A DNA stretch of 64,000 nt from Octopus vulgaris (taxonomy: Eukaryota), in the NCBI GenBank assembly GCA_951406725.2, contig OX597837.1, positions 4,340,001 through 4,404,000 of the forward strand. The letters are read 5' to 3'. The notes beneath the pieces are model-generated. The model did not search any database. It saw nothing but the letters and a program-made list of their open reading frames with translations, and had not been told where the DNA came from. Positions 3,688 to 64,000 of the stretch are shown piece by piece. How positions within the stretch are numbered: the stretch's first letter is position 1; each line of letters starts with the position of its first letter. Both the position numbers and the translations under genes were made by a program.

Positions 3688-3730
<43 letters not shown>

Positions 3731-3877
3731 CCTCCTCCCCTTCCTTCTCCCCTCCTCTCTCCCCACCCTCCTCTCCTCTTCCCCCTCTCCTCACCCTCTC
3801 CTCCTCCCCCCCTTCTCCCCCCTCTTCTCCTCACTACACCACACGACTTCACACATCACATCATATATGATGTGCCA

Positions 3878-5819: not shown

Positions 5820-5947
5820 TTATATATAAATATATATTGTGCAAGACATTGTAGATCTTTAGCTGGGCTAAAAAGTCACATTCGATCACAGCACCAGTAA
5901 CAGTTAAGCTTCGTGCAATGGCCATACTCGATAACGAGGGGGTAGCC

Positions 5948-6000
<53 letters not shown>

Positions 6001-6008
<8 letters not shown>

Positions 6009-6646
6009 AATATTACTTTATAAAAATATGGTAAAGTAAAGTGAATTCTTTTACTTTACCATATTTTTATAAAGTAATATTTCTGATATACCGTAAATGG
6101 TCGTTTTACATACCGAACACTGCTCGGTCAAATTAATTATTAATTAATTAATTTTACCCTTTTTTATTGACAATATAATACTTTCTCCCTAAAAATTTTA
6201 ACTACAGTTTTGCCTCTGTAGGAATGCACAACTCCGTAACTCATGTGGGTGGACGGGGACAATGCTAGATCTCATTTGTATTTTTGAATTCGCTGGTACT
6301 GGTGGTCGGACATAGTTTGTCCGGTGTTAATCATATCGGACGGGTATGTTTTGATTTTTAGTACTTTCAAATCCAAATCAGAAGAAATCTCGGAGCTGAT
6401 GAAGGAAATGATGGCGTTTATGGCCAACTAATCCAGAAACAGGCTTGTCCTCGGGTGATCTCATAGGGATGTGATCTTTCGTTGATTTTCCCTTATATCT
6501 ATGTGAGTTATTTCTGAGTATGCATTGTCTGGGAGATTTTTCTTGCAGTAGAAGAAATAGCCAAATTTTTGGCTGCTATTTCTAAAAAGCTCGGTATGTG
6601 GTAAAGTAAATTATTTTACTTTACCATATTTTTACAAAGTAAGATT

Positions 6647-6654
<8 letters not shown>
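6001..6654 (+). mobile_element. Non-coding Penelope-like terminal structure in (TA)n: inverted and direct 40-bp end repeat plus hammerhead motif
   Basis: Perfect 40-bp inverted repeat 6001-6040/6050-6089; same 40-mer repeated at 6615-6654; hammerhead at 6393-6452. Confidence 0.65.
6393..6452 (+). ncRNA. Type I hammerhead ribozyme motif with GUC cleavage triplet
   Basis: GAG-CTGATGA(A)-GGA...TCC(A)-GAAAC AGGCTT GTC-CTC: intact core, stems I, II and III identifiable. Confidence 0.6.
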
Positions 6655-6711
<57 letters not shown>

Positions 6712-8638: not shown

Positions 8639-8998
8639 ATAGGCGCAGGCGCGTCTTTATAGGTGCAGGTATGACTTTACAGGCACAGGCAGGGTTGTGT
8701 GGTAAGAAGATATATATATATATACTGAAACAAGTAAAAGAAAGCTTACACAAACATACACAAACATACACACATACACAACGTCCCATGTGGTAGGCTT
8801 GAAAACTGCTAAGAAATATCTCTCCTAGCAATCAAGTGAAGCTTGGTTAACGCACAAATACAAAATATATATCCACCAATGCGTTGTGGTCTACCTCGTT
8901 CTCATTGTATAGTGGCTGTGTGGTAAGACTTCTGCCCCGACATCCGAAACTCTGAGTTTTATTATGGCAACCGACTAAATGTCACATATGTTATATAT

Positions 8999-9565
8999 AT
9001 TGGGTTGTCAGGAAAGTTCGTGCCGATTTTTAAAAGAAAGAAAAAGGTCAATAAATACTTGCCATTACATTTTTAATCAACCAAATATGAACCATTTTGT
9101 TGCACAATGCGTCTCCATCTTTTCTTTAAATGAAAATACCCTCTTCCCAGAATTGAAGGGGTTTCATGGCGAAGAATTCATCAAGGTATCTTTTTACGTC
9201 ATCCAAGGAATTGAAATTTTTACCATTAAGACTATTCTGCAGAGACATGAATAAGTGGAAATCCGAAGGAGCAATATCTGGTGAATATAGAGGGTGGGGT
9301 AACACATCTCAGCCGAGCTGAAAAAGTTTTATCTGGTTCCCAAATCATCAAGTGCCGAAAATGAACTTTCTTATCTTCCATTTAATAGGGTTACAGAATT
9401 AAAACAGGTTATAGGAACATAAACCTTCTTCCACGAAAAGATAGCTTAAACTGTGCCCTAAATGGAGGTGTAGTCAAATCGTTATTTTATGAACTCAACC
9501 ATGTTCTAAAATAAGTGGAAAGGTAAGCTACTATAAATCGGTACGAACTTTCTGGACAACCCAAT
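8999..9565 (-). mobile_element. Internally deleted mariner element
   Basis: TIRs ATTGGGTTGTCAGGAAAGTTCGTGCCGATTT / AAATCGGTACGAACTTTCTGGACAACCCAAT with TA flanks; minus strand encodes HPLYSPDIAPSDFHLF..SLQN..F..W (mariner YSPDLAPSD motif). Confidence 0.9.
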
Positions 9566-9788
9566 ATATATAGAGAGAGACAGATGAGTGAAACAAGTAA
9601 AAGATAATTCAAATAACTCATCTTGATATACAACGCTGCTTTGAATCTCTTTACGTGGAAATGAAGTTTGAAAACATGTCTTTACAGAAGGTCATCTTCA
9701 AAGAAAATTCTTTGTTATAACGTTAAAGAAACAAAACCAAGCATTCGCAACAAGCTGTCTAAAGCATATTACTTCGACTTTTATATTT

Positions 9789-20822: not shown

Positions 20823-21921
20823 AAAACCTTTAAGGTGATTCCCTAACACAACCATTGTTCAATAACTACAAAAATGAAGGAATAATTTGATTTTTAATTA
20901 TTTACATTGAACTTAAGTTACGATATTGCTGTATTCAACTGATCTTAAGATTTGATTCTGTCACTATTGGGGTGATTGGTGGAACCTTTCCAGATACGTC
21001 TGGTGCATAGAAGACCCATTATATATTGGCGTTAACGTAATTAATGTACTGAACTAAATCAGAAAAAAAAAGAAACAGGCATTAATTAAAATGAAATACA
21101 TTGTGATGACTGGAATCTAATATCAAAGCTATTAATAGTACTCAAAAATTTCATGGGAGACAATTTATTTAAAAATTAATATACAGGTGCAGGAGTGGCT
21201 GTGTGGTAAGTAGCTTGCTAACGCACATGCGCAATTAGTCAGTTGCTTCCTGTTCAGCCAGAGTGGACGCGAGTCAATCAGCTCCGTCCAATTAAAGAAA
21301 AAAGACCAAAAGCGGAAAGTTGTCGAGGTAAGTGATTTTGTTTATTGTGAGTTGGGCATAATTTATTGCGTGCCAATTATTATTTCAGTAAGTTGTGTCC
21401 AACTCTGAGACAATTTCGCCTGCTCTCGGCGGCTGCCGTTTTTGTGTTCATTGAAAAAAAAAAAGAAAAAACAGTGGAGGGGCGTATCCTCAGAATTCAA
21501 TACAGTTACTGTTAAAATTACCGTTGGCGGTAGCCAGTGCTGTATTTGGGTTTGTTGAATTTATTCCCTTGTCAGAGTACTTCGCAAGAAAATTATAAAA
21601 ATAAGCCACTATTGGATTACCTTTCGGACCCATTTTTGTGGAGGTTGTGTTGCAGTTGCGGCGTTCCAGGTTCAACCCAGGCCGGGAGTACCGCAAGGCC
21701 AGAATATTTTGCTGTGTTTTTTCTGTTTATTAACTTTCTTTTGAACTTCATTTAACCCCCCCTTTTGTTTTTTTTCTTTATTGCGACTTTCCGTTAATTT
21801 CTTCCCTTCTGTTGTGCTTTCTCCTTTTTGTTTTTTCAAAAATCTATCAAATTTTATTTGGACTTTTGAACTTTTTTCTTCCTGCTTTTGAGTTTAATTT
21901 GAATATATTTAAAAAAAAAAC

Positions 21922-22788
21922 ATGGCAATGAAAAATAACAAAATTTTGGAGTGGGAAATCATACCCCCTAAAAAGTGGTTAAAAGACCGTGAAGATAGGA
22001 CGGTGGTGTTGAGAACCTACTCCAAGGCACTTGACACCATTGCCCTATTCGAAAAGACGGCAATTGAAAAGGAGTTGGAAGAGTATTTGCCAACAATTAA
22101 ATTCATTTCCAAGGGTGTCAAATATGCAACGGTGTGGTTGCTATTTGACACCCCCGAAGAGGCTTGCAAATTTGCTAGCAAATCCCTGGAGGGTAAGGAA
22201 ATCTTATTCCTGCCCACGTACAAAAAAAAGAAATTGATGAAAGCTTGGATTTGCGGACTGCCACCCGACATAGAACCCGAGTGGATAGAGGAGACTATCC
22301 GCCGGGGTCTGGGTGACAGCGAAACTAAGCTCCTCAATGTAAAAGTTCTTCCTGCGGCTGCTTGGGTTGGGTCAAAAGCAATTTTGACCCTGTGGACCCA
22401 ATCAGCCAATCTGGTTCTTCCAGATTTTTTGAAAATGGCCGGGTGTAGGTACCCGGTGATGCTTGAGGGTCGCCCCCCTAAGTGTCATCGGTGCTTGGAG
22501 TCCGGCCACATAAATAAGAACTGTCCTCGGGAACAAAATAGGATCCCGGAACAGTTAAGTAAAACCCCTCTAGAAGAGGGAACGATAACGGCCGAGAAAG
22601 CAGAGGACTCCTCAAACAGAGGCCGAAAGAGGAAGGTGAGCAACAATGGGTGCTCACCAAAGGATAATAGGGATGAGGAGAGGAAGGCGAATCTTCCAGC
22701 CACGGAGGAGACGCACCCTCCCTCAGTTGAAAAGGGAAAAAAAAGAAAAAGAGGAAGAAAAACGGGACATTACCGGCTGTCAGTGTAG
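21922..22788 (+). CDS. L1/Tx1-type ORF1 nucleic-acid-binding protein (RRM-like region and CCHC zinc knuckle)
   Basis: 288-aa ORF with GRPPK-CHRCLESGHINKNC (CX2CX4HX4C); collinear with ORF1 of the Tx1 element. Confidence 0.85.
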   Translation: MAMKNNKILEWEIIPPKKWLKDREDRTVVLRTYSKALDTIALFEKTAIEKELEEYLPTIKFISKGVKYATVWLLFDTPEEACKFASKSLEGKEILFLPTYKKKKLMKAWICGLPPDIEPEWIEETIRRGLGDSETKLLNVKVLPAAAWVGSKAILTLWTQSANLVLPDFLKMAGCRYPVMLEGRPPKCHRCLESGHINKNCPREQNRIPEQLSKTPLEEGTITAEKAEDSSNRGRKRKVSNNGCSPKDNRDEERKANLPATEETHPPSVEKGKKRKRGRKTGHYRLSV

Positions 22789-23159
22789 CACCGGAATGTC
22801 CCGGAACTACGTCGGTTGGGGTTGTGCCACCGACAAGAGAAGGAATACCGTTGGCGGAAACTGTGCCGCCAACGAAAGAACTGAACGTATTGGTCCTCTT
22901 CTATAGAGGAGGAGAAATTGAAAAAGTGATGGAAGAGCACTACAAGGGAGCACCTTTAGCCTTCACACAGGACCCCGAATGGCCTCCGCAGGTAGCTGTG
23001 GAGGCCGTGGCGTTCGACGTGACGCTTGGGCTAAAGGAGCTCAATGAAGATTATAACTTGGTCCCGGGCGACGCGAACTCGGAACTTGACTACGTTCTGA
23101 GGGAGGCGTGGTTGATGGTGGAGGGCGCGGGCACAAGCTATTTCGAGGACGATATGTAA
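22732..23159 (+). CDS. -1 frame C-terminal extension of ORF1 (fused product ~412 aa)
   Basis: The -1 frame is open from the GGGAAAAAAAAG run through KKRKKNGTLPAVSVAPEC..VVPPTREG..FEDDM*. Confidence 0.6.
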
Positions 23160-25730: not shown

Positions 25731-25985
25731 AGTCTGAAATTTTGTGTGGGGAGGGGGCCAGTCGATTACATCGATCCCTGTGTTCAACTGGTACTTATTT
25801 CGTCGACCCCGAAGAGATGAAATGCAAAACAGACCGCAACGGGATTGAACTAAAGATCCACGGGAAATGCCGGTATATATTTTGTCCAACGTTATCGATT
25901 TTGCCAGCACACAATTTTTGTTAAATGATATTCAGAAGAAAGAACCGTATCTTGCTGCTGGGTATTGAGTACAAAGATAAAGTGT

Positions 25986-26410
25986 GGATCTTTTCGGTTT
26001 GAACGGCAGTTTTTTCTAGCGGTATCATATGAAATTGTCACCCATAATTATGACCCTAGAATCGATCTATTGCATTTCAATGTTTTAGGTTTAGAGTTAG
26101 TTAGGGTTAGGGGTGGGGGAAGGGTATCTTTTTTTCTTCACAAATGTAAATAAACCCAATCTGTTTCTTAAACGAGGGACATATTCATACGGCACAGAAT
26201 TTTTTTTTTACTTCAATAGACGTCAGTGATTGGTTGAAATAACAGAAATTGAAGAAAAAACAACAAATATCTTACAAACTATAGAATTTTCTCAATAAAG
26301 CCAAGAGAAAAAGATGTTTTATAAATACATTTTACCAGTATACGAAGTTTTAAAGTGTTTAGTTACTTGGAAATTATTTTTAAAAACTGCCGTTCAAACC
26401 GAAGAGATCC
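25986..26410. mobile_element. 425-bp TIR element with internal TTAGGG repeats, flanked by a 91-bp direct repeat
   Basis: TIR GGATCTTTTCGGTTTGAACGGCAGTTTTT / AAAAACTGCCGTTCAAACCGAAGAGATCC; flanks 25895-25985 and 26411-26501 differ at 3 positions. Confidence 0.85.
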
Positions 26411-27360
26411 TCGATTTTGCCAGCACACAATTTTTGTTAAATGATATTCAGAAGAAAGAACCGTATCTTGTTGCTGGGTATAGAGTGCAAAGATAAAGTG
26501 TAAATTTGGCATAAATAAGTGGTTTCATGATAAGGATAAAATATCTGAAGAAACGTTTTGTGCTGAGAAGAAATGACCCATTGCAAATCAAATTCTACCG
26601 ACGCAGATTCTTCGTATTTATTGAAATGTTGACAGATGACGTTTCTACTGGGAGTTTAATAATTCAAATAAAGTACTTTGTTTTTGATAGGAAGAATATC
26701 TTAGAAATGCGAAAAAAGACAACGGAAAGCAAAGAAGCAAACAGAATATTTGATTTAAGGGAAAGATACAGGAACTAAATTACTTTATATGCGTTATACA
26801 GTTTTTCAGAGCATAAAACCTCTCAGAGATATTCTGTTGCTCTGTTTCTTTTTGTAATGTGGCAAATATAAAAACATATGTATAGGAAATATGGCACCAT
26901 ACATACTGCAAGATATTCGTGGAATAGGAAAATTACATTAATAAAATAAGTCATTATTAACTTCACTTTATTTCAGCAATGTATTTGAGAGGAGAGCTGG
27001 TTGTTAAACAATTCTGTCTTTCTTCTTTTATAAATATCAGATTTCGTTCCTATGTAAGAAATCAATGCTAACAAATAGAGTTTTGCTTCGTGCTGCATGT
27101 ATTTGCGTTATTAGTTACGCCGAGCGATTTCAAGTGTTCTCAGAGGAGAATCGTAATTTGCTTCTTGCCTACAAACATAAAATGGGAATGCACGTGCCGC
27201 TTACATGTCTAACATTCGCTGCGTTGTCATACGAAAGAAATCTATTTTCCCACAAGACTGAGCTGATTCTTATCTATCTATTCATCTCTCTCCATATATA
27301 TATATATATATATATATATCCCCCTTCTCTCTCTTTATCTATTTATCTCTCTCTCTCTCT

Positions 27361-27584: not shown

Positions 27585-27760
27585 GGACGTGCTGTCACTT
27601 CGGCTCCGAAGGTAATCGTTTATTTTGACTATTTATAGCCCATATTTTGTGTACATTTTTGCAAATAAGGTGTGTAAGGCACCCAACTTTCGTTTGAGTG
27701 CTTTTCCAAGGGAGTTTCAACCCCATTTCATTTCTGTAATTTTCTTCTCGACATTAGAAA

Positions 27761-29954
27761 ATGTCGAGATATTTTATTGTAGAACGCTGGTCGCGTTCCT
27801 TTATGGACCAGCATTTTCCTAGTTTGGAAACGCTAGGAGAAGAAAAAAAGAACTCATGCACGCAAAGTGCAAATCTAAATGACGTGGCAGTGAACGCTGC
27901 AACCACTTGCGATAACAACACTGTCACCACCACCACTAACAACAACAACAACAAGACTACTACTGCTACCACCACCGCCTCCACCACCACCACCACCGCC
28001 ACCTCATCCACTACCTCAACTAACAACAACAATAACAATGACAACAAGAATAACAACATTTGCGCCACCATTTCGACATCTGCTGCCACGGCTGTCTCTT
28101 CTGCCACTGACACCACCGCCAACAACAATAACAACAACAACAATTCCGTTCAGACCTTGTTTCATCCAACAACAAGAACTGAAGGGAATAAACAAAAGAC
28201 TGTGACCACCAAACAAATTGACAAAAGCTGCTCGAATGCAGGGATAAACTATGCAAGTAATTTTCCACCCCTTCCTACTTGCACAATCAAACCAAATACA
28301 CCGATTTTACCAACTGCAGCCAACAACAACATCACCACCAGCAACAACAATAACAAAACAACAACAAATTTCGCCGAGGCGATAAAAGAAAAAAAGACAA
28401 CAGTATATTTTACTGCACAACAAATAAAAGATACGAACATTTTAATAACGGAAGTAGATGGTATAGTAAAAATAAACATACCACAAGAAATATTAGAAGA
28501 TGAAAAGAAAAGAACAATTATATATAAAATAATTAATAAGAAAACAAAAAGTCCAGAGAAGGCTAACACAAGCAAAATCGAAAAATGCTTGAAACCCATC
28601 TGGAACTACAAAGAGTATGTGACCTGGTGGAACAAGTTCGCACACATACAAGTGGTCTTCCACACTGAAGAGTTAGCAAGACGTTTCTCAACGCTAACTC
28701 TTCATTCAGATGAACTTCAACTAACACCAAGCTATCGTGGACAGAAAGTGACTAAGATCACTTTAAACAATGTCCCAAAAATAGCTAACAATCTATGGCT
28801 AGTAAAGGCCTTATGTGTGAAAATGGAAGATTTCACAATTTTAGAAACTACGGTCACGGAGCACAAAAACTGGGTGGGAAAAAAGTAGAATTTCTACTAC
28901 ATATAAACCAAGAGGACATAAAGAAAATACCCACCCAGATATGTGTATCAGAAGACCACAAGTTGTATGTGGTCGTCGATGGCAGAAGACCACGTTGCTA
29001 CATATGCGGCAGTGAGCAACACCTAAAAAAAGACTGCAAATATGCCGCAAGAAAACAACAGCAACAACAACAGCAGCCGGAAAAAACAAATAAACCAGCT
29101 TTACTACCCACACCACGTTTTGCACGAACAGGACTAATCACAGAAAATCAACAAAAAACAAACCTCACCAACCAAACATCCACACCAACCGCAGCAAGAA
29201 CAGAAGCAACACCAACAACAACAACAACCAAGAATAAACCAACTCCCAAACCAAGGGCATCTGCCAAAAAGACACTCATCGAAAATGAAGAAACAATTAC
29301 TAGTCCAAATCCCCACAAAATTGACACCCCAAACAACACAACAATACCTACAATCACTCAAACACAAAATACCCACACCCCACCTCCAAAACCGCATACA
29401 CCACAACCTAACGCTCACCAACCAACACCAACAACACAGTCTACAATAGACCCCAATATTTTCCCTGTCCCAAGCTCTGATTTCTCTGATTTGTCATTAG
29501 ACGAAGAAGACACAGAAGATTGGCAAATAGCCACAGGGGGGAGAAGAAAAAGGGGAAAAAAAGAAAAGAAAATATAACAAACAAAGCAGGAAGATTCACC
29601 ACTCCCGAAACAAAAACATCCACAGAAAACAAACACATCAACACAAACACACCATCATGAAACCCCCCAACAATGTTGACAGCCATAAACACAAACAACC
29701 ACGACCTAATGGAACACATTAGGTCAAACACCAACATAACTGAAAACGACATAAAAACAAATAACCACCCACGCACAACACCACCACAACACATTAAAAT
29801 AATACACGTAACACAGAACACATACAGCACCCTGAAATCTCTTTACCCTGATGCAGTAGGGAGATTTCAAAAGTATTCATCAAAGAAACTATACAAAAAC
29901 CTCATGGAAGAAGACTGTGAGGTGAAAAACAAAAGACTTTCGAACAACAAGTAA
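27761..29954 (+). pseudogene. Tx1 ORF1 (Thr/Asn-rich N-terminus, RRM-like region, CCHC knuckle), broken by two -1 shifts and one TGA
   Basis: ORFs 27761-28888, 28795-29577 (GRRPR-CYICGSEQHLKKDC) and 29673-29954; shifts at about 28880 and 29555; TGA at 29658. Confidence 0.85.
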
Positions 29955-30022
29955 CCTTTTCTCTCTCTCTTTCCTATTTTGCACTTTCTTTTCGTGTGTA
30001 AAACACAATTTTTTATCGGAAC

Positions 30023-33000
30023 ATGCTCAGAATAGGCAGTATAAATGTACGTGGCTTGGGGTCGCCTTGGAAACAAGGCTACCTGTTAAATGACATCAAG
30101 TCACTAAATCTGAATATCATAGCCATCAGTGAGACCAGACTCCACAGCTCGCGGGCACTCCGGCACAGTTTCGGTACACATTTCAACATTTATTTTTCTC
30201 CGTGTCTACCGAGAATGGGCGGAGGTGGCACCGCGGTGCTTCTCCGGAAGAGTCTGGATCTCAAAGTAAGAGCAATTTTCCTAGACCCGGAGGGTAGGCT
30301 GGTCGTTTTGGATGTCGATGGCAGCAATGAGTGTGCTTTTCGACTGATAGCAGTTTATGCTCCGTCCTTAACAGGCCGACCAGATTTCTTTCGACGTCTA
30401 GAGTCTTTCATGGGAACGTCTCGTCCTTTACTTTTAGTGGGGGATTGGAATGCCACCCTGGACACGCATCTAGACTACGTGGGCAGAGATAGCAATAGAA
30501 GGGGATGCAAATGCCTCAAAGACCTGCTCAGACGTTTCCAACTGTCTGACAGGTACCGACTGGACCACCCGAATGTGCCAATGTGGACATGGAGTAACCG
30601 CATCGGGTCGTCCAGATCATACTTAGATAGAGTATTCTGTAGGACAATAGATAAAAATAGTGTAGGTTGTCCACAATTTCATATAGTCAGTTACACAGAT
30701 CACAAGTTTGTGACTTGTACACTTGACTTAGATAAGACACATAGGCAGGGTCCTGGTTACTGAAAACTGAACGCGTCTTTTACAGCACGACAGGTTTACA
30801 GGGACCGGATCAGCACATTAGTTAAGAGAGCTTTGACGGGTACCATCATCAACAACAGATGGTGGTATGCCCTAAAAAAAGCAATTAAAGTAGAATCAGT
30901 CAGATACAGTAAAGCCCTAGCATTAGACCGAAATAGAATAGAGGGAGAATTAGTTAAGGTTTTAGAAGAGGCACTTAGAACTGGCATCGCGTCCAACGTG
31001 CTGGCGGCGAGATTGGCCCTCGACCAACACCTCAACGCCAAACACGAGGGATGCGTTGTCAGAGCTAGGATGCGTGCTCTGAGGAACGAAGGAGTTGGAG
31101 CCGCCCAAGAGGCCCGAGTGGTGGAGACGCAACGAGGCAACAGAGCCACCATCAAGTCTCTTATAGATGAACAGGGGCGCGAATTGCTCGAGCCTAAAAG
31201 GATGTGTGGGGCTTTTCAACAACACTTCACCCAACTGTTTGGGACAAGTGGTGGGTCAGAACGCAGAGTGGACTTTAGTGCCTGCCTTGCTACGACTCTC
31301 AGCAAGAGAGGTGGAGTCTTGTGAAAGGCCTATCACAGCTGCGGACGTACAGGATGCGATGGTAGGCTGCGCGAGAGTATTATAAAACGGGAGTATTCCT
31401 GCTTTTGTAAAGCGAGGAGCAGTAGCACTGATTAAGAAAGACCCAAACAAGGGGGACGTCATAGATAATTTCAGGCCCATCACTCTCCTCAATGCAGATT
31501 TGAAAATTTTGGCCAAGGTGTTAGCCGAGAGGTTGGCGCTTGTCATCAAGAAACTAATCGACAAGGCGCAAACATGCGCCGTGCCGGGTAGAAGTATTCA
31601 TGACAACCTCCATCTGATGCGCTACATCATAGACAGGGTAGTTAAGAATCCTGGCATGGGTGGGGCGCTGATCAATTTGGATCAATCAAAAGCTTTCGAT
31701 AGGGTAGACCATCACTACTTGGAGGCTGTCCTTAAAGCGTCTGGTTTCGGTCCAGTTTTCCGCGGTTGGATCGCTGCCTTATACAGCGGCATCCGCTCAG
31801 TAGTTCGCGTAAATGGTCATCTATCCAGACCTTTTAACATCATGCGTTCGGTTCGTCAGGGATGCCCCCTCTCATCGCTCCTGTATGTATTGACTCTTGA
31901 GCCACTACTGCGGAAACTGGCGACGCTGAGGGGCATCCAACGAGAGCTGGGATGCGGGAGGAGCGTGTCTGCATACGCGGATGACGTCACCGTCATAGTG
32001 TCGAGCTACAAGCACATCGAACTGGTCGGCGAGACACTAAAAGAATACGAAGCGGTAACGGGAGCAAAAATTAACCGGGAAAAGTCAGTGGGCTTGCGGC
32101 TCGGTACCTGGAGAAGCAGGCCCATGCCGTCCAACAGCGACTCCATCGTGGGACGCTGGACGGACGGACCGGTTAAATTGCTCGGGGCCTGGTTCGGTCC
32201 GGACCTCTAAATGGAGAAGAACTGGGGCGAGATAACGACTAGGGTGGCTACTCTCACCCAGAAATGGACTGAGAGAAAGCTATCCCTAAAACGTCGGGCG
32301 GGGGTGGCGAACGCGTACATCGCATCCGCCATCGAGTATCGTCTGACCGTCGTGCCTTGTCCCGACCCTACCATCACCAAACTGGAACGTATACTCTTCC
32401 GCTTCTTGTGGAAGGGAAACGTTCCGATGGTTAGGCGATCCATTTGCTGTCAACACCCGCTAAATGGAGGGCTGGGCATGCCGTGGTTGATGATGCGCAG
32501 ACATGCGCTGAGACTGCGACATCTCCGGCGCTTCATAGACAACGGTGAACAGGTGTGGTCGCCTTTTGTGCGGCGCGCTTTCCCGCAGCTCGTCTCCTTG
32601 GACGAACTACAGTCATGGATCAAGCAGAGGCCGAGGCTAGGCGAATGGCACCGCGAGTGTCGCGTTGCTCTCAAGCAACTCTGCCGTCCGGGATCGAACT
32701 TGTGCGACTCCATCACAACAAAGGCATTCTATAGAGGATTAGTGGAAGGGAGGTGCGACGACGAACTCGGACAGAGTCTGGGCGTCGACGAGGAACACCT
32801 GACCCGCCTGTTCAGGACAACTTTCGGACCGGGACCTATGAACAATCACCAAATATCCCTGGCCTGGTAGTGCTATCGAGAAGCATTACCTGTTCGGGAT
32901 AAGCTCTACAGACACGGTTCCAGACACACTGGACCGATTTGCCCGAGATGCGGTCAGAGCGACGAAACCGTTCTGCACGCACTCGTGCAATGTCCAACCA

Positions 33001-33358
33001 TTTCAGACCTGTGGGCTTATGCCGAGCGGCTGCTGACACGTGTGGGACGAATCCGCCTATCGGCCGAGTCTATCGTGAGAATTGCTCCGCCCCCTTCCTT
33101 CAACCGGGAAGGCAAGGCAGTTTTCATCGTACTGGTGGCCATGGTGAAAGAATGTGTGTGGTGGACCCGAGCGAAAGGATTAGAGACAAACACTTACCTC
33201 TCTGGCCAATCGCTCATCAACTTTTTCAAGTACCACTTGAAAAGGAAGGTGAGAATGGAGAGGGAAGTTTTGTCTCGCGAAAGATTAAAAAAAGACGGGT
33301 GAATGTTGCAAAGATGGTGCGTGCGAGTGACGAAACCATTTTGAGCATGATCCTGTAG
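30023..33358 (+). pseudogene. Tx1 ORF2: AP endonuclease, reverse transcriptase, C-terminal zinc finger
   Basis: SINVRGL, ISET, VYAP, GDWN, SYLDRV, TDH (APE); FRPITLLNAD, LDQSKAFDRVDH, VRQGCPLS, YADD (RT); CPRCGQSDETVLHALVQC; stops at 30761, 32208 and 32868, frameshifts, and an apparent deletion near 31375. Confidence 0.95.
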
Positions 33359-34338: not shown

Positions 34339-34939
34339 AAAGGCGGAGAGCTGGCAGAAACGTTAGCACGCTGGGCGAAATGCTGAGCGGTATTTCGTCT
34401 GCGTTACGTTGTGAGTTCAAATTCCGCCGAGGTCGACTTTGCCTTTCATCCTTTCGGGGTCGATAAATTAAGTACCAGTTACACACTGGGGTCGATGTAA
34501 TCGACTTAATACCTATGTCTGTCCTTGTTTGTCCCCTCTGTGTTTAGCCCCTTGTGGGTAATAAAGAAATAGGTATTTCGTCTGCCGCTACGTTCTGAGG
34601 TCAAATTCCGCCGAGGTCGAATTTGCCTTTCATCTTTTCGGGGTCGATAAATTAAGTACTAGTTACGCACTGGGGTCGATGTAATCAACTTAATCCGTTT
34701 GTCTGTCTTTGTTTGTCTTCTCTGTGTTTAGCCCCTTGTGGGTAGTAAAGAAATAGGTATTTCGTCTGCCGTTACGTTCTGAGTTCAAATTCCACCGAGG
34801 TCGGCTTTTCCTTTCATCCTTTCGGGGTCGATAAATTAAGTGCTAGTTACGCATTGGGGTGGATGTAATCGACTTAATTCCTTTGTCTGTCCTTGTTTGT
34901 CCCCTCTCTGTTTAGCCCCTTGTGGGCAATATAGAAATA
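34339..34939 (+). mobile_element. Trimer of SINE family B with Tx1-type tails, single flanking TSD
   Basis: Units joined as tail AAAGAAAT|AGGTATTTCGTCTG at about 34571 and 34755; TSD AGAATCTGTACAGC at 34322 and 34940. Confidence 0.9.
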
Positions 34940-40679: not shown

Positions 40680-41050
40680 ACGTTCTCGAATTTGTGGGGA
40701 ATGGACTAGTCGATTACATCGATCCCCACTATTTCACTGGTACTTAATTTTTCGACCCCGAAAGAATGAAAGATTAAGTCAACCTTCGCGGAATTTGAAC
40801 TCAGAACGTAACGACAGACGAAATACCTATTTCTTTACTACCCACAAGGGACTAAACAGAGAGAGAACAAACAATGACAGACAAACGGATTAAGTCGATT
40901 ACATCAACCTCCAGTGCATAACTGGTACTTTGTTTATCGACTCCGATAGGATGAAAGGTAAAGTCGACCAGGCGGAATTTGAACTCAGAAGGTAAAGTCA
41001 GACGAAAGAATTTCGCCCGATATGCTAACGATTCAGCAAGATCGTCGCCT
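40680..41050 (-). mobile_element. Nested SINE B pair: Tx1-tailed copy followed by a copy with a different tail
   Basis: Junction AAAGAAAT|AGGTATTTCGTCTG at about 40827 (minus strand). Confidence 0.85.
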
Positions 41051-41300
41051 TGGGGATAATAATAATCCCTTTTACTATAGGCACAAGGTCGGAAACTTTT
41101 GGGGAGGGAGCTAATCGATTGTATCGATCCCCAGTATGTATGTATGTATGTATGTATGTATGTATGTATGTATGTATATTTGTATGTATGTATGTATGTA
41201 TGTATGTATGTATGTACGTATGTATGTATGTATGTATAAGCTGTATTTTTAAAATCTTTTATTAAATGTAACAAGCCCGAAAACCTTTTGATACCACCCA

Positions 41301-41330
<30 letters not shown>

Positions 41331-41336
<6 letters not shown>

Positions 41337-41600
41337 ATATTTCGGAATGGTCATATTGCCAGTTTAGCCAATAAAAATACACGCACTATATATTTGGTGT
41401 TATTTTGCTTCAGTGATATTTATTTTTTACATTAATCTTAATCTTATTTCGGCCAGAGTTCTTTCGTCACACTCCTGTGACCGCATCAGTGGTCCTTTGT
41501 TTTCTTCTTTTGTATTTGTGTCTCTCCTTACTAACCGAAATATAACAATATCTGTTTCAACACACGACTTCACATAAAAAATCTTGCACAACAAATATTT
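41331..41600. mobile_element. Short element H3 with internal inversion; hammerhead-like motif at 41451-41495 (-)
   Basis: 41331-41533 is inverted relative to the copy at 45985-46279; bounded by ATTGTTATATTTCGG / CCGAAATATAACAAT. Confidence 0.75.
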
Positions 41601-45984: not shown

Positions 45985-46279
45985 TGAAGAAATACAAAAT
46001 ACAAAATGGCTGACCGTTGGTAAGGAGAGACACACAAATAAGAAAGAAGAAAGCAAAGGACCACTGATGCGGTCACAGGAGTGTGACGAAAGAACTCTGG
46101 CCGAAGTAAGATTAAGATTCATGTAAAAAATAAATAACGCTGAAGCAAAGTAACACCAAATATATAGTGCGTGTATTTTTATTGGCTAAACTGGCAAAAT
46201 GACCATTCCTAAATACAACAATATCTGTTTCAACACACGATTTCACATAAAAAATCTTGCGAAACAAATATATAAAAAC
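45985..46279 (+). mobile_element. Short element H3 with hammerhead-like motif (46058-46102), inserted in the Tc1 ORF
   Basis: GGACCA-CTGATGCG-GTCACA GGAG TGTGAC-GAAA GAAC TC-TGGCC; possible TSD TGAAGAAAATT at 45974 and 46280. Confidence 0.7.
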
Positions 46280-46346
46280 TGAAGAAAATTATTTTTAATT
46301 TACACAAGAATGGTTTAAGATACGAGTTAATTAGCAAACGAATATA

Positions 46347-46726
46347 CACTACCGTCAGAAATTAATTAGCACCCTTGATTTGCTCTTCACTCAAGGTATG
46401 TGCTGTCACCTAGTGGCCATATCTCGAACTATTGCTTTGTTGCGAGTTCACTGTTGCGCAGAACGATGACGTAACTTTGTTTGCAGAGCAGTTTGAGAGT
46501 CTACAGCCTTATGATGCTGACATAGCAGTGCAACAACAACTTGGAGTGCGGATGCAGACAAATCTTCCTTTGTTTAATAGATATAGGTAGCGCCTCGCAA
46601 GGACCGAAATCGCACCATACTAAGTTTTCTCATCGCGTAAGACGTTTTGAACAGCTCATAGGTTAATTGATTTAACCTATTTAATGTAGAAATTTGAGAA
46701 GTGCTAATTAATTTCTGACGCAAGTG
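46347..46726. mobile_element. Tc1/mariner-type MITE nested in the Tc1 ORF
   Basis: TIR CACTACCGTCAGAAATTAATTAGCAC / GTGCTAATTAATTTCTGACGCAAGTG with TA TSD; host reading resumes after it. Confidence 0.9.
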
Positions 46727-47798
46727 TATATTAGCGTAAACACAGTTGCCAAAGTAATTCAGAAGTACAAAGCTACTGAGCGGCTAAGCAATAAACACAG
46801 TCGAGGTCGTCCTTCTATTTTAACTGCGTGTGACACACGCCACATCCAACGTCGTACCGCTTCATCTTAGGCTCATCAAGTGTCTTCTGTTAGTGGAAAG
46901 AATGTATCCACCCAAACAGTTCGCCAATGTTTGAACTGATGTGGCCTTCATTGGTGCATTCCTCGTAGGAAGCCTTTCCTCACTACCAGGCATAAATTAA
47001 ATCGCCTTTCTTTTGTTGAGACCTATGTGAGCAAGGGGAAGGTGTCTGGGAATAAAATTTGTTTTCCTGACGGGACCAAAATCATCTTGTTTGGGTCAGA
47101 TAGTATTCAACGAGTATGGCAAAGACCAGGTGAAGATAACAGCGACAAATGCACTGTACTTACTGTTGAAACACGGCGGAGGAAGTGTTATGGTTTGGGG
47201 ATGCATGGGTGTGACTGGTGTGGGAGGACTCACATTTTTTTGAGAGAATACTGGATTCAAAGCTTTGTTGTGACACATTGCAGAAAACAATGTTGAAGAG
47301 TATCGAGGAACCATTAAAACATTCCATGTTCCAATATGATAAGGACCCAAAGCACACTTCAAAGATGACGACTAAGCTATTATCAGATAAGTTAAAAGTA
47401 TTGCCTTGGTGTACCATGTCACCTGATTTAAAACCAAAAGAACACCTGTGGGTGTTTTGAAAAGGAAAGTTGAGGAAAGAAAGCGCTGCAATGTAACACA
47501 GATGAAACGTCATTCAGGATGAATGGAGGTCGATTTCATCGATTATATTGGGTATTTTAGTCGACTTTATACACAGAAAACTTAATGCAGTCCTTGAACA
47601 TAAAGGCGGTCACAGCGGATATTCAGTATAGCAAATATAGAGAAGGGGGAGTAAAAGAATAAGAGAGAGAAAGAGAGAATTACCTCTGAATATCCTTGTT
47701 GCGTATTTTAATTTTACACACCTTATTTTGAAATTGTATGGATAATACCATACTAAATTCTGGTGCCTCAACTTAAGTACCATATTCATCTGAATCTC

Positions 47799-63166: not shown

Positions 63167-64000
63167 CAAACATACATACAGATATATATATATAAAATTT
63201 ATAATAATAGTCATAATAAACTCTAATTACAATAGAGGGCACACAATGTGCCTGCTTGCTAGAAAGAGAAGCCAAATCCTTAAGTAAACCACCGAATTAC
63301 ACTGAAATATCCAACTGTCAAACAGAAATCGGGCAAGTGAGTAATGATTATGAGAATCATAACAGAACAGAGCTGTGGAATGTAGAATTGGATATATTTG
63401 GATCAGGATTTCGAGTTGTGGCCCATTTTTGTTGGATTTAGCTTGAGGATTTAGCTTCTCTTTCCAGCAAGTAGGCGCATTTTGTGGCCTCTGAAACAAA
63501 TAAATAATATAAGAAAGAACCTGAACAATTCCTCTGACGGGTTCCCATAGTGCTTCCTTCTACCAAAATTCACGTAAATGTCTTTGGAGTACGGATGATC
63601 GAATCCCTATCGATCTAGCTGAGAGACCAACTTCTGTACATTCATAAAAGTATGATATTGAACGAAGACAATTATGAAGTACTATTGACTCGGTTATTAT
63701 TCTTTCTAATTAAAAACCCAGTGTTAATCAACTGTTCCGAGGAAAATACAACTTATTGTCGAATAAAGATTTGTTTAGTCCGATGTTATTGTCTTTCTTT
63801 TTCTTTTCTTTTATTTTGAATAATTAAAAAGGAGAATTCTTATGGCGTCACCAAAACATAAAATTTACAGCATAAATGAATATTTATATAATATCTCAGC
63901 GCAACTCAAAGGGGTGGGGGCGGCGAGGAAAAGAAAGAAAGTGAAACCCAGTATCATTCTTCAATACAAATGTCCTGTTAAGAAATGTAAATGAAGATGA

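Follow-up and report, generated by a model that had tools for sequence, protein, structure and literature searches.

The length of the target site duplication (TSD) is a main criterion by which non-autonomous DNA transposons are classified, and it mirrors the geometry of the transposase. In a 64-kb stretch of Octopus vulgaris DNA (the window), an earlier note, made from the sequence alone, reported a short element with terminal inverted repeats (TIRs) lying between two copies of a 91-bp direct repeat, which is about ten times the usual length for such elements. The question raised by this locus is whether the repeat was made by the ends of the element, and if so, whether making it is the habit of a family or a single accident.

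Anatomy of the element and of its flanking repeat

The element is 425 bp long with a GC content of 32%, and its coordinates agree with the earlier description: the TIRs are 29 bp each, they differ by a single mismatch at position 7, and both outer ends read GGATC (Table 1). A 24-mer from the TIR matches the window only at the two ends of the element, where 0.00 matches were expected from 100 shuffles, and no second copy of the element, its TIR, its interior or the 91-bp repeat was found in the 64-kb window. The longest stop-free frame overlapping the element is 74 aa, and Pfam gave no matches for the 14 scanned reading frames that overlap it or its right repeat. No tRNA was found by the tRNA scan, and the Rfam scan produced eight weak matches, each far under the gathering score and none credible for the element. 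Single-strand folding gave z = −5, which is explained by the TIR stem.

The element is real and cleanly built, and is a non-autonomous TIR element of the unclassified MITE kind. MITE families also have many copies of uniform length; the window has this one copy, and the element is presumably an abundant octopus repeat. MITEs are defined as small, non-autonomous elements with TIRs and no coding sequence (as described in part of PMC2872659). Like them, the element is under 500 bp (MITEs are below about 500–600 bp), has TIRs and is non-coding; it is unlike them in that a MITE has a short TSD typical of its family or superfamily, whereas the flanks here show the 91-bp repeat alone.

Table 1. Features of the locus, in window coordinates
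Feature	Position	Strand	Remarks
Possible target half-site just outside left repeat	25878-25893	+	post hoc, weak
Left copy of 91-bp direct repeat (putative target duplication), unique AT-rich DNA	25895-25985	+	no third copy in window
TIR element, MITE-like, non-coding	25986-26410	.	no Pfam match; Rfam matches below gathering score only
Left TIR	25986-26014	+	29 bp, GGATC start
Telomere-like tract, degenerate, with two perfect TTAGGG units at its end (26101-26112)	26084-26112	+	sequence reading
Canonical G-quadruplex motif	26104-26124	+	four runs of 3-5 G, loops of 3, 1 and 2 nt; G4Hunter 2.2
Right TIR	26382-26410	-	29 bp, 1 mismatch to left TIR
Right copy of 91-bp direct repeat	26411-26501	+	3 mismatches
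Possible partner half-site just outside right repeat	26502-26517	-	post hoc, weak

The direct repeat had been described as exactly abutting, with three mismatches, and this is what we find: the two copies are identical at 88 of 91 positions, there are no intervening bases at either end of the element, and the similarity stops sharply on the outward side. When abutting lengths from 2 to 400 were tested, n = 91 gave 88/91 (binomial p about 1e-44) and the runner-up was background. Among 159 inverted-repeat candidates in the window, no other that lies outside TA microsatellites is abutted by a direct repeat of at least 15 bp; the output for these candidates comprised 40 rows, of which 8 are this element and 32 are TA repeats. 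The junctions read ..GTGT / element / TCGA.., and the repeat starts with TCGAT and ends with AGTGT. No additional short duplication is present at these junctions, and outside the 91-bp repeats there is neither a TSD of 2–12 bp nor a pair of TG..CA ends.

The repeat copies differ at 3 of 91 positions and the TIRs at 1 of 29 (Fisher p = 1, with wide intervals), so the two appear compatible with a single age. The three mismatches in the repeat fall within 17 bp, a clustering that is not significant (p = 0.08). Immediately outside the repeats, 11 of 16 bases match between the left flank and the reverse complement of the right flank, with a one-base offset. This was spotted post hoc, and it was equalled by 29 of 3000 random site pairs; it may be a weak lead to target half-sites.

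The target DNA is unique sequence directly downstream of two SINE remnants, and is not a microsatellite. The window as a whole is AT-rich, with many microsatellites and dispersed SINE-like repeats, the SINE families presumably being of octopus type. Head-to-tail arrays of a 184-bp SINE-like unit, which we assume to be an octopus SINE family, lie at 34389–34939 and 40708–41055 (three copies, 90% matches). A near full-length LINE, interrupted by stops and frameshifts, occupies 27758–33300; its ORF1 (zinc knuckle) is long and of low complexity, and it has endonuclease, RT and zf-RVT domains. An ORF1-like piece is also found at 21913–23159. A Tc1-type remnant lies at 46341–47300, with 32-bp inverted repeats at 46341 and 46732; its transposase-like sequence (HTH_Tnp_Tc3_2 at 46940) continues past the second repeat, which may therefore be internal. 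Five other TIR or palindromic MITE-like elements were noted, at 8992–9572 and 5947–6709 (both in TA runs), 63234–63492, 41329–41535 and 46016–46224, and none of these five has a long non-microsatellite flanking repeat.

The G-rich tract and the search for relatives

Within the element there is a telomere-like tract, which reads as the earlier note gave it and which that note thought could bind telomeric proteins. It has two perfect TTAGGG units preceded by degenerate ones. The TTAGGG dimer is not a chance occurrence, because it is unique in the window and is found in none of 5000 shuffles of the element; a looser 10-mer, allowing one mismatch, is no commoner than chance would give (5 matches against an expected 4.8). 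Two TTAGGG units are short for an array of telomere-protein sites, and the tract runs into a G-quadruplex motif, which leaves the idea of telomeric binding weak. This motif, which the earlier note does not mention, is the sole canonical four-run motif in the 64 kb, and shuffling the element 5000 times gave such a motif once; a C-rich stretch at 3727–3807 equals its G4Hunter score. Judged by its sequence, the region would be better read as a G-quadruplex motif than as a telomeric tract, and the tract most likely represents a cis-acting motif inside the element, either a predicted G-quadruplex or a protein site, and not a captured telomere.

Pfam was used to scan 148 frames in the window for a partner enzyme (134 of the 140 longest among 171 filtered frames, plus those around the element). 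The domains found were those of LINEs and one Tc1-type HTH at 46940, whose ends are unrelated to the element, and there was no partner transposase or tyrosine recombinase in the 148 frames. The exact TIR 24-mer had no matches in the collection of non-eukaryotic genome contigs. Phage and plasmid searches with blastn returned 1 and 33 records respectively; among the matches listed, all are AT-rich, 48–54 bp long and cover 11–13% of the element, and are attributed to chance.

The contigs were also scanned with a degenerate G-rich pattern, which was modelled in part on a coral repeat and so was not blind. This gave 29 loci, all of which were self-compared and seven of which were read by eye; 27 were attributed to bacterial hairpin repeats or to chance, and two were kept. 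Six of the loci (L015, L020, L024, L005, L016 and L023) are bacterial intergenic hairpin repeats with nearly the G-rich motif of the element, the match being 23/23 bases in L015, L020 and L024. The resemblance is taken as convergence.

The two loci that were kept are L003 (JAKSDK010000821.1, 1472–1597) and L025 (JAAXHD010000145.1, 610–885). Both are GGATC-ended MITEs on short contigs without long frames in bacterial genome bins, and these contigs look like stray animal DNA; the type is presumably one found in coral genomes. All six aligned ends, from the element, L003 and L025, share GATC at positions 2–5 together with T14, T15, G20 and G21. The GATC was not part of the search pattern, and the G-rich motif is shared by construction of the search. 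Unlike the element, the look-alikes are largely palindromic and about 126–137 bp long, with two in tandem in L025, and they have no flanking repeat: a long one was found at 0 of the 2 loci (from tests of abutting lengths up to 132 and 136 bp, and from whole-locus self-comparison), and no short TSD was found at either. Their TIR matches of 25/30 and 23/30 mark them as older than the element, and they are of different families. The Repbase terminal rule asks that positions 1–11 align with at most one mismatch and that TSD length be equal (from a section of PMC4455052), and membership of the element's superfamily was rejected, there being three mismatches in positions 1–11 and no TSD at L003 or L025. 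Because the look-alikes lack a short TSD, GGATC ends are not tied to a canonical fixed TSD. The evidence works in both directions, since long repeats are not universal among such ends either.

Comparison with known systems

Target-specific superfamilies carry TA, TTAA or TWA motifs at their insertion ends. There are none at the junctions here, and Tc1/mariner, piggyBac, Kolobok and PIF/Harbinger were rejected for this reason; the outcome is no different under the hybrid-end model considered below. A fixed TSD of 4–11 bp, as in hAT, MuDR, Merlin, P, Zisupton and Sola, is not visible, although a hybrid-end product would hide one inside the 91-bp repeat. The A, F and S Cryptons were rejected, since the element has 29-bp TIRs and Cryptons have none. 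TRIM, LTR and KolobokP-like composite elements were also rejected, because such elements would have terminal repeats bounded by TG..CA or by TIRs and an outer TSD beyond them, which this locus lacks. Coral CMITEs, which are TTAA/piggyBac elements according to part of PMC2872659, are unrelated. It is concluded that the element is not a member of any family that could be tested.

A CryptonV element would share its termini with an autonomous CryptonV and would have a microsatellite target. The CryptonV group was described from cnidarians, with some families being microsatellite-specific (cited to a Repbase report in the relevant part of PMC8869645). Like the Cryptons and CryptonV, the element shows unusual target behaviour, but it has TIRs, long repeats and a site that is not a microsatellite.

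The earlier note took eukaryotic DDE transposons to make TSDs of 2–11 bp. This is too narrow, because the IS481EU elements, which are DDE transposons of parabasalids, make TSDs of about 4, 15 or 25 bp (in the portion of PMC10045372 that describes them). They resemble the element in being eukaryotic TIR transposons with longer TSDs of mixed length, but their ends are TGT..ACA, their TSDs are discrete and they are found in parabasalids only. The GGATC ends and 91-bp repeat therefore exclude the element from this group. About 25 bp is also the longest TSD that was found for a eukaryotic TIR transposon family in the text consulted.

There is a parallel in bacteria. IS1549 and IS1634 are flanked by long direct repeats of 8–514 bp, varying by copy, for which no mechanism is proposed in the relevant part of PMC2266710 (published in 2008). 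They share with the element the combination of TIRs and long direct repeats, but they are bacterial and autonomous, their ends start with C, and there is no sequence link. An element of their kind would be expected to have long, variable repeats at most of its copies and a transposase of the IS1634 type. If long duplication proves to be a family-wide trait, the element would work like IS1549 and IS1634 (the IS1634 family). Long flanking duplications are also made by retroelements: HERV-K has sporadic TSDs of 111 and 250 bp, for which recombination-based alternatives are discussed (PMC5488345, in part), and the LINEs R9 and Dualen make duplications of 126 bp and of median 900 bp (PMC9977147, in part). 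In contrast to these, the element has TIRs, no LTR, and no poly(A) or 3′ tail. Neither this element nor a eukaryotic TIR family with TSDs of about 100 bp was found in the literature searched, which lay outside Repbase Reports, Dfam and subscription journals; the portions of PMC12139950, PMC9713403, PMC13652916, PMC5753468 and PMC8969392 that were covered contain no matching family.

Origin of the 91-bp duplication

The duplication most likely arose by the ends of the element being joined 91 bp apart, either at insertion or in a later reaction of the ends, and we consider it highly probable that one or other of the readings in which the ends made it is correct. This follows because the repeats are not LTRs, and because a tandem that was there already would need a TSD-less element to hit its junction, which is about a 1 in 180 event.

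The best explanation, to which we give an even chance, is that the element is a MITE of a family whose transposase joins the ends at loosely spaced sites, giving variable duplications. A transposase acting in trans would recognise the GGATC-ended TIRs and mobilise the MITE, and its ends would be joined to the target at two sites on opposite strands, 91 bp apart where a few bases are usual. The intervening 91 bp would then be copied so as to flank the element on each side, either through fill-in (by strand displacement or with the help of a helicase) or through a passing replication fork. If the loose spacing is a property of the family, duplications would range from zero to hundreds of bases, as with IS1549 and IS1634. 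The exact abutment, the absence of an outer TSD, of TG..CA and of TA, TTAA or TWA, the look-alikes without a short TSD, the divergences of repeat and TIRs that fit a single age, and the precedent of IS1549 and IS1634 all argue for this explanation, and the similar inverted outer flanks, spotted post hoc, are as expected if each end were to pick its own half-site.

The proposal of an unclassified transposon with long or variable duplications stands in so far as this is an unclassified, non-autonomous TIR element with a 91-bp repeat that has the features of an insertion-made duplication, while the family habit is drawn from n = 1. A family-wide habit of long TSDs, judged on this one copy, has a chance that is even or slightly below. 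Against it are the selection of the locus by the earlier note, which favours rare accidents, the lack of a long repeat at both look-alikes (which are older and of other families), the lack of an autonomous partner among the 148 frames, and the sporadic long duplications of elements whose TSDs are normally short (HERV-K, maize hAT).

These last examples bear on a rival reading, of a single event in a family whose TSD is short or absent, which is a serious possibility though well short of an even chance. It could happen by hybrid-element insertion or sister-chromatid transposition, where the left end and the sister's right end insert 91 bp away on the homologue, or by a local hop after which two copies 91 bp apart recombine by unequal exchange. 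In either case the old and new short TSDs would be concealed inside the repeat, at its last and first bases, the three mismatches could be allelic differences, and the anatomy predicted (derived from the P-element model) is exactly that observed; if the assembly had fused two such alleles into a chimera, the appearance would be identical. The look-alikes without long repeats are in keeping with such an event. Alternative transposition that places an element where the two units of a direct duplication meet is documented for P (hybrid-element insertion) and Ac/Ds (reversed-ends transposition), and DDE integrases give sporadic long TSDs (parts of PMC3744419 and PMC5488345 respectively). The documented cases are, however, rare by-products of families with 8-bp TSDs, seen in 3 of 7611 maize hAT insertions, and the maize duplications span 8 kb to 5.3 Mb and involve two elements (PMC3744419, in part). 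A one-off event also requires that the family have no target motif, the look-alikes lack any short TSD that could be hidden, and the window contains no second copy close by. Since a one-off hybrid-end or aberrant insertion gives the identical anatomy, a single copy cannot tell a family habit from an accident.

The remaining readings do not have the ends of the element make the repeat. A 91-bp tandem might have existed beforehand, or been made at a staggered break repaired by the host, with a TSD-less element then entering its junction. The absence of a TSD at the look-alikes would fit, and DNA transposons without TSDs (Spy) reportedly exist, but a random insertion into a 182-bp tandem strikes the junction about once in 180 (arithmetic), and the divergences of repeat and TIR look alike in age; this reading is improbable. 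Still less probable is that the repeats belong to the element, making a 607-bp unit with terminal direct repeats that is TRIM-like, composite (KolobokP-like) or of the tyrosine-recombinase (Crypton) type. Molluscs are said to have composite DNA transposons with long terminal direct repeats (KolobokP), and Repbase and Dfam may list non-autonomous elements that carry TTAGGG-like tracts in their interior under CryptonV or among unclassified DNA elements. Against this, there is no 2–12 bp TSD outside the repeats, which start with TCGAT and end with AGTGT, and the TIRs lie on the inner side of the repeats. Cryptons are, moreover, described as having 4–6 bp repeats, and neither TIRs nor long direct repeats (PMC3212892 and PMC13465315, both in part).

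Going beyond the preferred explanation of loosely spaced joining, the element may be one of a widespread unclassified group in animals, defined by GGATC ends and a G-quadruplex/TTAGGG motif in the interior; a transposase would join the two ends independently at loosely spaced half-sites, with duplications that range from absent to roughly a hundred bases and upwards. We suggest this tentatively, at a little under an even chance. If the event was one-off, the locus is simply a tidy natural example of alternative transposition. If a eukaryotic TIR family does routinely duplicate about 100 bp, this would point towards a different integration chemistry, and such a family would have been overlooked or left unclassified under TSD-based annotation. 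A high-copy family would let the spectrum of lengths and the rules of target choice be read from one genome. Such a group would be the eukaryotic equivalent of IS1549 and IS1634, and would steadily seed short tandem duplications, which remain when copies excise.
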